Shown here piece by piece: positions 4,336 through 37,368 of a DNA stretch of 54,428 nucleotides (positions are counted from its first letter, which is position 1; every line of letters starts with the position of its first letter). The translations under genes were made by a program, and so were the position numbers. Where the stretch lies: the IMG/VR virus record IMGVR_UViG_3300036944_000521, positions 1 to 54,428 of that record; one strand, 5' to 3'. The notes under the pieces were generated by a model that ran no database searches, was not told the origin of the DNA, and saw only the letters and a list, made by a program, of their open reading frames with translations. The stretch comes from a virus. Lineage: Duplodnaviria; Caudoviricetes.

Positions 4336-4904
4336 TGCAGTTGCTTAATCTTTTCTTTCAGAGCAATCAGCCCTTCACGAGTTACAGGCTTACAAAGGTC
4401 AGCTTTGATCTGATTTACAATACTAGGATGTAGATCCCAATAAGCAATCTCTTCAAGAAGCTGAATGATATATGTAGGAAAACGAGTCTTAACTACCTGA
4501 CCTGGATTACCCACTACAATACTAAATGGTGGTACATCTTTAGCTACAACAGCACGAGAACCAATTACGGACCCGTTACCAATCGTAACTCCAGATAGAA
4601 TTGTTGCTCCAATGCCAATCCAAACATCATTCTCAATAACAATATCACCTTTAGTAGAAGGAGAGCCTGAGAATTGCTCTGCGCCAAAAACTTCTTGACC
4701 CCAATGACCGAACGGATACATACTAGCCCAGTCTGTGCGATGATTGCCTCCTAGCAGCATATGTACCTCAGCAGAGATAGAACAATACTTACCTATGAAA
4801 GCACGACTTCCTTCACCCCAAGCATGATACGTTACACTATCATGGCCATAGGTATATTCTCCTACGGTCACAGTAGTTCCTCTAACTTCGTATATGCGCG
4901 TCAT
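4332..4904 (-). CDS. CatB/Vat-like hexapeptide O-acetyltransferase
   Basis: IGKYCSIS, DVWIG, GVTIGNGSVIG and VVGNPG repeats. Confidence 0.85.
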   Translation of the reverse strand: MTRIYEVRGTTVTVGEYTYGHDSVTYHAWGEGSRAFIGKYCSISAEVHMLLGGNHRTDWASMYPFGHWGQEVFGAEQFSGSPSTKGDIVIENDVWIGIGATILSGVTIGNGSVIGSRAVVAKDVPPFSIVVGNPGQVVKTRFPTYIIQLLEEIAYWDLHPSIVNQIKADLCKPVTREGLIALKEKIKQLQ

Positions 4905-5569
4905 GCAGCAAACTCCAGATTTCCTAGGTCAAAGTCAATATAGTCTAGTTCTCCAATACACTGAAAATGCGTATTGCCTAGTTTCATATGAGTAGTGTGA
5001 TGCCAATGCCCAAAGAACCAGTATTCTGGTTGATGCAAGCGCCACATACGTTGCAGAGCTGAGGCAGTACGATTAGGGTACTCCGTACCTTTTACTAGCC
5101 CAGTACGGAAGAACATTTCGTGCGACGCAGCAGCAGGACAATCATGAGTAATCATCACGCGAGGCTTTACTGCTGCGTACAGGTCTAGAAATACGTCAAA
5201 CTGATTAGCAGTACATTCTTCGCCTTCCCACCAATCTACGTCTTTAGTACGTTTATGCCAGCCAGGAGGTGCGTCAGGATTATCAATGCTCCAAGCTCCT
5301 CCTAGAAACATAGTATGACCTTCTACACGACCATCAGGAATATGTCCGTGCATAGTTTTACATAGCTCAGGATTATCGTGATTACCGCGAATAAACCGGT
5401 GCGTACCATCATTGTGAAGCGCGTCTACAGAAGTGTACCAGTAGGGACTCTGACCGAACCCAATCCCAAAATCTCCGATTTGAATTGTTGGACCATCAAA
5501 GTTTCCAATAGAATAGTTGCGATAGTCATTGAACATTCCGTGAATATCACCAATGAGTCTGGTATACAT
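4901..5569 (-). CDS. Calcineurin-like metallophosphoesterase
   Basis: GDIHG, GDFG, GNHD, TH and GHWH motifs. Confidence 0.85.
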   Translation of the reverse strand: MYTRLIGDIHGMFNDYRNYSIGNFDGPTIQIGDFGIGFGQSPYWYTSVDALHNDGTHRFIRGNHDNPELCKTMHGHIPDGRVEGHTMFLGGAWSIDNPDAPPGWHKRTKDVDWWEGEECTANQFDVFLDLYAAVKPRVMITHDCPAAASHEMFFRTGLVKGTEYPNRTASALQRMWRLHQPEYWFFGHWHHTTHMKLGNTHFQCIGELDYIDFDLGNLEFAA

Positions 5570-21162: not shown

Positions 21163-21265
21163 ATTATTTAGAAGATATACTAGTAGGACTTGAACCTACA
21201 ATCGTTATTGTCTCGCTTTTTACGGCAACGGCTTTACTTAGCCCATAGTATATCATCAAAATAAT
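21163..21265 (-). ncRNA. TGATGA-stem RNA, copy 1
   Basis: ATTATTT-TGAT-GATATACTA...TAGTATATC-TTCT-AAATAAT enclosing T arm GTAGG-TTCAAGT-CCTAC. Confidence 0.65.
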
Positions 21266-35228: not shown

Positions 35229-35302
35229 TGGAGCGGATAGCGGGAATCGAACCCGCGTCATTAGCTTGGAAGGCTAAGGTCTTACCATTACACAATATCC
35301 GC
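35229..35302 (-). tRNA. tRNA-Gly(TCC)
   Basis: Loop CT-TCC-AA; CCA. Confidence 0.95.
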
Positions 35303-35585
35303 ATAATACAGAACCTCACGTATTGGTTCCGAGTTATCTAGCATAGCGACACTGAAAGGTCAGTGTATCTAGATTAACAATAATACGCACAATTAGCCGG
35401 AGCCGGTTGTCATATCTTTCGTTTAGTTTTACCATTAACTCCTCCAACTATTGAACTGGATGGTCGTTGTCCTCGGTAATGGCTATCTAAACTTACATGA
35501 TCAAGATTTTTACATCTAAATTGGTTGCAGTATCCATCCACAGATTTGCTACGCTGGCTCTGTTAAGCCTCGATAGAGCTAGAGT

Positions 35586-36059
35586 TTAAATTCTAGCCTC
35601 GCTAATAGTAGACCACATAATTACGTCTGCTTTAATTTGTGCCAAGGCAGGATTACTTTGTTCACCCTTACCAGGAACCCAAATTTTAAGCGGAACCTTG
35701 CTTTTACCATATTTTGCAACCATAGAGACTACACGAGGTAGAATATATGTTTGAAAACGATATTCATTTTCAGGTTTACGCTTAGCTTCAGTAGAAGCAT
35801 AAGGTTTACCCTCAATGTAGGCACGTGCTAGGAAAGTAGCACGATTTTCATTTCTTACATCCCATTTACGATGCGTGCTCAGAGAGCAGTATTTCATAAA
35901 TGCTTGATCATTCCAACGAGGATACATATCATTGTTTCCTGTTTTGTGATAATTTTGTAGTGACCAGATATATTGTTTATAAAGCTTGCGCTCTTCAAAA
36001 CGAATAATTTGAGCTTCTACGCTTAGATGTTTAGATTTAATTTTAAGTTCGACAGACAT
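35586..36059 (-). CDS. Hypothetical basic protein
   Basis: MSVELKIKSKHL..EAQIIRFEE, HRKWDVR; AAGGAG RBS inside a hairpin. Confidence 0.7.
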   Translation of the reverse strand: MSVELKIKSKHLSVEAQIIRFEERKLYKQYIWSLQNYHKTGNNDMYPRWNDQAFMKYCSLSTHRKWDVRNENRATFLARAYIEGKPYASTEAKRKPENEYRFQTYILPRVVSMVAKYGKSKVPLKIWVPGKGEQSNPALAQIKADVIMWSTISEARI

Positions 36060-36061
36060 TT

Positions 36062-36150
36062 TTATCTCCTTGATGTTATCTGTAATATATTGAGTATTTC
36101 AGTAACTGTCAAGGCTAAGGTGGCTTAATGATCTACAATTAGTATCTCCT
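36062..36150 (-). promoter_or_regulatory. Putative amber-containing uORF plus RBS-sequestering hairpin
   Basis: AGGAG-N7-TTG TAG ATC ATT AAG CCA CCT TAG CCT TGA; hairpin CCTTGA...TCAAGG. Confidence 0.5.
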
Positions 36151-36152
36151 GT

Positions 36153-36752
36153 TTATTGTTTATCTAGGTAATCAGCCATATCGTGATTTACATCAGCATG
36201 GCCTTGTTCATCTGCTCTTACAGCAATAACTACGTCTCGTAGTGTTGCAGTAGTAGGTAGTTTATAGTAGTCACGCGCAATCTTAGGTGCAGCAATATTT
36301 TCTACTTTACCAGCATCAATCTCTTCAAGATATTGTGTATAGCTGATAACGGCTTGGTCTTCAAAATAACCAATCATACGATGTGCAGTGCGCGGAAAAA
36401 ATATATATAATATAAAGTAAAAATGCCAAAAAATAAGTTGAGCTGCTAGTATTAGCAATCTTTCAAATCTAGTAGGTTTTGCAATCTGTATGAATATCAT
36501 AAGGTGCATACGTTCATTTTCAGCTTCGTCAAGCAGTGTCTTAATCCACCCACGCTCATCTGGCTGCATACGCCGTAAACTGCGTAAGTGTTGCCACATA
36601 CCTGCAACCATACCTGGTACACCAGCTACAGTCTCAAGAACAACAGCTCTATGACCATATCGTTTAGCAAAAACAGTATCAGCAAACCACCGAAAAACAT
36701 TAGTTAGGCTGTAGGCTACTCGATCTGAAAAGTTACGTGGAGCTAGTACCAT
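36153..36752 (-). CDS. aox: Alternative oxidase (di-iron ubiquinol oxidase)
   Basis: LETVAGVPGMV, EAENERMHL, GYFED-AV-SY and RADEQGH motifs. Confidence 0.95.
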   Translation of the reverse strand: MVLAPRNFSDRVAYSLTNVFRWFADTVFAKRYGHRAVVLETVAGVPGMVAGMWQHLRSLRRMQPDERGWIKTLLDEAENERMHLMIFIQIAKPTRFERLLILAAQLIFWHFYFILYIFFPRTAHRMIGYFEDQAVISYTQYLEEIDAGKVENIAAPKIARDYYKLPTTATLRDVVIAVRADEQGHADVNHDMADYLDKQ

Positions 36753-36874
36753 TTATTGACATAAATCCTCATATTTTGAATGATGTACTCTATGAGAACT
36801 TCTATCACCGATCACAGTAGGAAATAAGATAGTGTATAGTAGTTTTATCATAAGTTATCCTAAAATATTTAAGT

Positions 36875-36949
36875 TGGTGGTCCTAACAGGAATTGAACCT
36901 GCGTTAGTCTGCTTTAGAGGCAGCTGCCTTACCATTAGGCTATAGAACC
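36875..36949 (-). tRNA. Amber suppressor tRNA (anticodon CTA)
   Basis: Full cloverleaf GGTTCTA/TAGGACC-ACCA; loop CT-CTA-AA. Confidence 0.85.
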
Positions 36950-36958
36950 GTTATTTAG

Positions 36959-37021
36959 CAGGCTCATCTTGTGCTTTTTCCCAAAAAAAGTGCCTTACGG
37001 CAATGATGCTGAACTGAGCCT
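36959..37021 (-). ncRNA. CAGCA-family Y-like RNA 8
   Basis: AGGCTCA-GTT-CAGCA...TGAGCCT-G; GNRA hairpin TGCC-GTAA-GGCA and CTTTT-TTTGGGA-AAAAG (Pro-type anticodon loop). Confidence 0.8.
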
Positions 37022-37368
37022 AAGTATTTAGTCGAAGCTATACCAGTATCCTACAGCAACCCAAGTACGCATACCGCTATCATCAAATTGAACTTGAACA
37101 TCTAATTCTCGTTCTTGCCTAATTGGAGCGTCTGCACCCATCAGGCTTCTGTAGTTAGCAAGGTCGGTTTTGTGAATCCATACGATCATGTGTATTCCTA
37201 TCTGGTCCGCCCTATACCCACCGCTACGCAGTAAGCATTATCTCTGTCTATGCCGACGGACAGCATACCCGTTGCAACACTTACTAATCATGTGTTAATT
37301 CACAGTCAAGCATAGCTATAGTGCTTCAAAAGCTATATTCTATCACCCCTTTGCAGAGGATGAAAAAT

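Follow-up and report, generated by a model that had tools for sequence, protein, structure and literature searches.

Leader peptides that control a downstream gene by holding a ribosome on an RNA hairpin are an established kind of switch. In ermC and ermB, a ribosome stalled on the leader occupies the hairpin arm that otherwise sequesters the downstream Shine-Dalgarno (SD) sequence. In-frame stop codons can also act as sensors, as in prfB, where a stop within the regulated gene senses termination against alternative decoding with the help of an internal SD and a +1 slip at a slippery codon, and where the gene product, RF2, is the factor being sensed. In secM-secA, a short leader with proline in the stall puts a stalled ribosome on the SD-sequestering arm of a hairpin, and proline-driven stalling is described as a regulatory device in both SecM and MgtL (PMC12856214). 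The reference list of the same source includes Hayes et al. 2002, which by its title concerns the disturbance of termination by a C-terminal proline (PMC12856214). Amber leader-peptide switches have been engineered, in which a TAG placed in the leader makes downstream expression suppression-dependent; as reviewed, these switches are synthetic and transcriptional, use tna- or trp-type leaders and need an unnatural amino acid (PMC6412442).

Suppressor tRNAs encoded by phages are likewise familiar, and code 15-like crAss and Lak phages have such tRNAs. Phages that are rich in tRNAs and keep the standard code are also frequently seen to carry them. The XacN1 authors state that the target genes of its CUA tRNAs could not be identified (PMC5852040), and the phiKp24 authors leave the purpose of its suppressor tRNA open (PMC8386662). 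Our search of open-access papers and bioRxiv found no description of a leader of the kind reported below, or of any natural nonsense-suppression sensor, suggesting that nonsense suppression is a new input for an otherwise known type of switch.

The locus lies on the minus strand of a 54,428-nt stretch of viral DNA (the entire IMG/VR record IMGVR_UViG_3300036944_000521), referred to here in its full length as the window. It probably carries a cis-acting leader-peptide switch that makes translation of a 157-aa gene dependent on nonsense suppression. The proposed trans-acting input is a tRNA gene found by ARAGORN at 36875-36949 (minus strand) with the amber suppressor-type anticodon CUA. This tRNA scores 67.8 bits against the Rfam tRNA family (gathering score 29), has the canonical anticodon loop CTCTAAA and an encoded CCA end, and in a simple alignment is closest to the Arg-TCT tRNA among those in the window. 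The window contains 30 tRNA genes, all on the minus strand; one tRNA-like member of this array (21174-21252, minus strand) received an anticodon of only two bases ('aa') from ARAGORN. Downstream of the suppressor tRNA comes an alternative oxidase gene, aox (36153-36752, minus strand; Pfam AOX, E 1e-79), whose TAA stop occupies 36155-36153. The distance from the tRNA 3' end to the leader start is 736 nt on the same strand, in agreement with the roughly 740 nt of the original prediction.

That prediction had also described a string of leader elements directly after the aox stop, and every one of them is present. An AGGAG SD motif (36146-36150, minus strand) stands 7 nt ahead of a TTG codon that opens the mini-ORF TTG-TAG-Ile-Ile-Lys-Pro-Pro-TAG (36115-36138, minus strand). 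Its codons are TTG at 36138-36136, TAG at 36135-36133, ATC ATT AAG, CCA CCT at 36123-36118, and a final TAG at 36117-36115; if this second TAG were also read, translation would end at the TGA at 36109-36111. The hairpin (36068-36114, minus strand) follows immediately, with its 5' arm CCTTGA at 36114-36109 directly after the leader stop and its 3' arm TCAAGG at 36073-36068. The 3' arm pairs four SD bases of the 157-aa ORF (35586-36059, minus strand, an ORF call and the putatively regulated gene), whose AAGGAG motif (36066-36071, minus strand) lies six bases ahead of the ATG at 36059. RNAfold pairs CCUUGA with UCAAGG, as had been proposed; the description of the hairpin as long needs qualifying, since the hairpin stands and its length consists of a 6-bp outer stem plus inner helices. 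A blastn search of the 1.8-kb region against phage records returned no match. Further downstream, a minus-strand ORF at 34278-34817 matches phrog_799, a DNA methyltransferase family in PHROGs, over the C-terminal part of that family (E 1.4e-32).

We infer from this arrangement that the leader is translated, that its Pro-Pro-stop stalls the ribosome and that expression of the gene depends on the tRNA. The short ORF would be translated from its own SD and, in the window, would meet UAG at its second codon. Should a release factor win at this UAG, the ribosome would leave about 16 nt before the hairpin, which would stay closed with the SD of the gene paired, and the gene would be off. By the dimensions of the ribosome footprint, a ribosome terminating at the internal stop would sit too far upstream to open the stem. 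If instead tRNA(CUA) reads UAG, the ribosome would continue for five codons to Pro-Pro-stop. Since the 5' arm begins at this stop codon, it would be covered by the mRNA channel of the ribosome. Release after the C-terminal Pro-Pro would be slow and hold the ribosome in place, the SD would be freed, and a second ribosome could initiate, turning the gene on.

Compared with the erm and secM leaders, the input proposed here is suppressor decoding of an in-frame leader stop rather than an antibiotic or secretion status, and the stall is proposed to occur at Pro-Pro-stop. The use of an in-frame stop to sense termination against alternative decoding resembles prfB, but in the window the stop sits in a separate leader, a dedicated tRNA would decode it, and the product is the 157-aa protein. 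Recoding of the prfB type was rejected on the grounds that the stop lies in a separate leader and that the codons preceding it vary among leaders. Unlike the engineered switches, the element in the window is natural, is proposed to act on translation and is accompanied by a tRNA of its own.

The tRNA and the leader are not adjacent in the window, and here aox is a passenger inserted between them. In one RNA-library contig from a close relative, the positions equivalent to 36874 and 36151 are joined with 11 other letters between them, so that 722 nt are skipped; aox and its flank (window positions 36153-36874) have this length and fill precisely the interval from tRNA to leader. Two runs of a single study yielded RNA-library contigs that span the leader and the gene, which is no proof of transcription or translation. 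Most of the sequencing runs contain only small portions of the window DNA and are not informative about habitat.

To follow the leader beyond the window, homologous loci were gathered from IMG/VR. The gene was also found in cultured phages, namely Synechococcus phage BUCT-ZZ01, roseophage DSS3_MAL1, Stenotrophomonas phages DLP_5, DLP_3 and Summit, and phage NCTB. The 112 loci with at least 200 nt of upstream sequence reduced to 65 distinct upstream regions; related sequences share ancestry, and the leader counts are not independent events. The same parts, in the same order and with similar spacing, can be read in these sequences, together with covariation of the hairpin arms and a match between the leader stop and the tRNA anticodon. 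A script recovered the leader design in 61 of the 65 regions, as an SD, a start codon, 0-9 codons, an internal stop, 2-9 further codons (about 80 in two cases) and Pro-Pro, mostly followed by a stop. The largest class, TAG with Pro-Pro-stop, accounts for 51 regions. Four regions have one extra codon between Pro-Pro and the stop, five have TAG and Pro-Pro with no stop, so that translation would continue through the hairpin, and one has TGA with Pro-Pro-stop. Four regions were left unclassified by the script (L063, L101, L033 and L026). Inspection by eye shows that L063 and L101 share the design, extended by a few codons beyond Pro-Pro, and that L033 is a four-base (TGAA) variant, leaving L026 as the only one of the 65 distinct regions in which the leader is absent. 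The expectation of a conserved start-TAG-x-x-x-Pro-Pro leader was thus borne out in 61 regions plus three variants, and later scans added 18 distinct leaders of the same kinds.

Several details of these leaders are consistent with translation. The start codon is ATG in 55, TTG in 5 and GTG in 1 (n=61), preceded by SD-like motifs. In the window's own subclade, TTG occurs in five distinct leaders and ATG in a sixth (L008). All six are preceded by an SD at a distance of about 7 nt, which makes TTG plausible as the leader start. All four bases are seen at the third position of both Pro codons, which are mostly CCA-CCN. The spacing from TAG to the final stop is five codons in 39 of 52 leaders, and the distance from leader end to gene is 44-62 nt, with a single case of 90 nt. 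The base after the internal stop is A in 40, G in 17, C in 4 and T in none, that is, a purine in 57 of 61; a 3' purine after a stop favours suppression. As a control for chance, the pattern was searched in 543,862 nt of related loci, where it occurred 4 times with TAA and 3 times with TGA in place of TAG, compared with 34 matches with TAG, mostly the leaders themselves. It occurs once in the 54-kb window (both strands) and once in the 156-kb BUCT-ZZ01 genome.

In the L083 and L074 groups, the early TAG and the Pro-Pro-stop are separated by an in-frame insertion, an ORF of about 81-83 codons. This ORF follows a TAG at codon 3 or 4 and was seen in L083 (1178-1440), L074 and L212. A whole small gene appears to need suppression in these three loci, because it lies in frame after the early TAG.

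The hairpin was evaluated across relatives, as the window fold taken by itself is marginal (-18.2 kcal/mol, z -1.80, with 11 of 200 shuffles folding as well in RNAfold). In all 29 leaders that were folded with RNAfold, a hairpin spans the region from the leader stop to the SD. Arm sequences vary between clades, and in an arm-swap test with 50 distinct leaders, arms paired with their own partners reached a mean of -13.7 kcal/mol, compared with -7.4 kcal/mol for swapped partners. In all 50 leaders the start of the 5' arm falls within -5 to +4 nt of the final leader stop, and in 49 of them the pairing takes in at least 2 of the 4 SD-core bases. An alignment of 43 leaders with MAFFT and RNAalifold gave no consensus structure because the stems sit in different registers, and the covariation claim therefore rests on the arm-swap test. 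The features that define the erm and secM leaders are found here as well: an upstream ORF with its own SD and start, a covarying hairpin that sequesters the SD of the gene, and a candidate stall site placed so that a ribosome would cover one hairpin arm. Two other kinds of element were rejected. A transcription attenuator of the trp or his kind does not fit, as no terminator-like site was found on the minus strand at 35300-37300 and the SD and AUG follow the hairpin, and no Rfam family matches the leader or hairpin.

The hairpin region also holds the evidence for a different reading, in which the gene is expressed mainly from its own promoter within the hairpin and the leader matters only for transcripts that read through from the tRNA array, or is a relic. 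The sequence TTGACA-17-TATATT at 36112-36084 (minus strand) matches a sigma-70 promoter at 11 of 12 positions, although that consensus may not be the host's. Transcription is predicted to start about 17 nt before the ATG, giving a transcript that would keep the SD and lose the 5' arm; because this arm is missing, such a transcript would escape control by the leader. Of 50 leaders, 15, belonging to several clades, have a similar promoter site, as against 4.8 +/- 1.9 in shuffled sequences (maximum 12). The site is nevertheless absent from the other 35 leaders, whereas the leader and hairpin are nearly universal. In addition, the loops are rich in A and T, and any leader with TCAAGG around its SD is bound to have TTGA in the 5' arm. 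If the leader were a relic, Pro-Pro would not be retained through synonymous changes, nor would the leader track the tRNA anticodon. We therefore consider expression chiefly from an internal promoter unlikely.

The suppression-dependent switch predicts that the leader should be linked to a tRNA able to read its internal stop, as the original prediction had anticipated for CTA tRNAs. Of the 65 regions, 57 have a suppressor-like tRNA upstream on the same strand; for 39 of the 57, the interval from the tRNA 3' end to the gene start is 95-130 nt. In DLP_5, an annotated tRNA-Sup-CTA is located directly downstream instead, accompanying a leader that reads M-K-stop-V-Y-K-P-P-stop. Every CTA tRNA case pairs with a TAG leader. 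Two lineages, L062 and L246, carry tRNAs with 7-nt loops containing TCA, and their leaders have TGA-G read in frame; L241, a sibling of L246, has a CTA tRNA with a TAG leader. The L062 tRNA is identical to the CTA tRNAs at about 55 of 75 positions. Conservation, tRNA linkage, the stop/anticodon match, arm covariation and geometry together support the readthrough switch that was originally proposed, as far as comparison of genomes can do so.

A third type of match involves four bases. The tRNAs of L033, L172, L182, L211 and L219 have 8-nt anticodon loops that contain TTCA (UUCA), namely CTTTCAAT/CTTTCAAA/ATTTCAAC, and the corresponding leaders have TGAA. Reading these leaders in triplets never leads to Pro-Pro, which is encountered in the +1 frame only. 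A four-base step at TGAA yields ...R-G-P-P, ...R-A-P-P or ...R-S-P-P at the usual place. These five lineages thus combine an 8-nt loop, a four-base anticodon and a matching four-base target codon, the combination looked for in quadruplet decoding, and their tRNAs are candidate natural quadruplet decoders. The genes lie at 2793-2870 in L033 and at about 900-975 in L172, and upstream of the gene in L182, L211 and L219. ARAGORN overlooked three of the five, and the D-arm region of the L211 tRNA looks atypical. Two further TGAA leaders stand without such a partner: phage NCTB gave no tRNA matches in its whole record, and L229 has the TGAA design with no tRNA nearby.

No suppressor-like tRNA was seen in 8 of the 65 regions within the sequence available for each. 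Five of these contigs were scanned through all their tRNA regions, which yielded 121 tRNAs and none that read as CTA. One of the five is rated 100% complete and has next to its leader, 155 nt upstream, a tRNA with the odd loop CCCCTAA that was called Arg-CCT. Homologues of the suppressor tRNA with 6- or 8-nt or register-shifted loops (CCCTAA, CCCCTAA) occur in L001 (2742-2817), L008 (2022-2097), L080, L082 and L073 (155 nt ahead of the gene), where ARAGORN labels them 'ct', 'ccta' or Arg-cct. How several of these homologues decode is uncertain, because ARAGORN cannot assign loops of 6 or 8 nt. At other loci, tRNAs of 77-78 nt with anticodon CAA were labelled Leu (L003 1535-1612, L004 2344-2420, L012 1572-1648, L024 1100-1176, L032 2430-2507); the Leu(tag) and Leu(taa) tRNAs called in the window and in some of the loci are longer, at 82-85 nt.

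Genomes in which the leader is present and a suppressor was not detected are what would be expected if the leader senses release-factor activity, or the general termination efficiency of the host, with near-cognate readthrough occurring when termination is weak and no part for a phage tRNA. Competition at a stop codon is also two-sided by nature, and at the sequence level the sensing of suppressor versus RF1 activity, as first worded, is not distinguishable from the sensing of the suppressor alone. On the other hand, the internal stop matches the anticodon of the neighbouring tRNA wherever a standard anticodon can be read, and the TGAA leaders require a +1 reading that weak termination alone would not supply. 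A leader that responds to termination without the phage tRNA thus seems quite improbable.

The idea that the conserved stretch is an RNA-level signal, for tRNA 3' processing, a transcript end or an anti-SD, with a mini-ORF untranslated beyond or even up to its internal stop, draws on the usual position of the stretch directly 3' of a tRNA and on the potential of CC-rich sequence to pair with an SD, but we regard it as highly implausible: tRNA and leader are separated by aox in the window and the tRNA is downstream in DLP_5, the Pro codons are free at the third position and, being mostly CCA-CCN, are not complementary to the SD, the start codon and SD are retained, two groups place an ORF of about 81-83 codons in frame between TAG and Pro-Pro-stop, and the locus has neither a terminator-like site on the minus strand nor an Rfam match.

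The suppression-dependent switch, to which we return, differs from the use of suppressor tRNAs in code 15-like phages, which it shares only in that the tRNA is phage-encoded. Treating TAG as a sense codon hardly alters the eight longest ORFs of the window, in which 11 of 106 ORFs terminate at TAG. For BUCT-ZZ01 and DSS3_MAL1, whose genomes are complete, code 11 gives a normal reading; each has one CTA tRNA, and the lengths of their top-5 ORFs are unchanged or barely changed with TAG as sense. Genome-wide TAG reassignment was therefore rejected for all three: there is no genome-wide in-frame TAG, and since they use the standard code, the suppressor is not serving a reassigned one. Instead it has one recognisable dedicated target.

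The gated gene belongs to a large phage family without a name. AlphaFold2 (AF2) modelled the 157-aa protein as mostly helical with a pLDDT of 91.7. One profile search recovered 2,996 representatives (E<=1e-3) and another 1,781 clusters (E<=1e-10), none of them with a name, and the protein had no match in Pfam, PHROGs, NCBIfam or PADLOC, nor its profile among PDB sequences. Structural comparison with Foldseek against the PDB returned nothing at E<=1e-3. A wide VIA-align search reached a best Z of 7.6 with generic helical hairpins only (ESCRT-III, the SerRS arm and others), which is uninformative for a helical protein, and matches in BFVD were uncharacterised relatives only. The ESM Atlas returned viral hypothetical clusters as well as weak portal-fragment look-alikes; the latter, with 147-162 shared features, fall below the guide value of 170 and were treated as noise. 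A search for longer, fused forms turned up a single 333-aa protein with PF00867, encoded on a 1.3-kb contig where two genes were probably joined in the gene call. Among 185,579 prokaryote species genomes there was a single match, on a MAG contig.

With low confidence, we suggest that the 157-aa protein acts on translation or the tRNA machinery. The module's change from amber to opal left the protein 62% identical to its amber-type neighbours. Because the module went from amber to opal with little change in the protein, the protein may not be specific to one release factor, although this is a weak argument. If the link to decoding is right, an unannotated family of at least 1,781 clusters can be flagged as probably tied to it.

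More broadly, these modules might be self-contained orthogonal decoding circuits, a proposal that we hold tentatively and at somewhat less than an even chance. Each would consist of a dedicated suppressor tRNA (amber, opal or four-base UGAA) whose sole recognisable target is the leader stop gating a single conserved protein of helical structure. On this view the tRNA would serve as a translational trans-activator or timer, and not as a means of changing the code, and there may be feedback from the gated protein on termination or the tRNA pool. The UGAA version, if this is true, would amount to a quadruplet codon that natural selection has tied to a specific physiological role. For the suppressor tRNAs of standard-code phages, the module offers a concrete and testable target, and it recurs in many uncultured and several cultured phages. 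The element would also be a ready-made natural reporter of amber, opal and four-base decoding, which would be useful in genetic-code engineering. Near one of these modules, in BUCT-ZZ01 (L036), ARAGORN also reported a permuted tmRNA at 4885-5303, which follows the 157-aa gene homologue at a distance of about 500 nt downstream.
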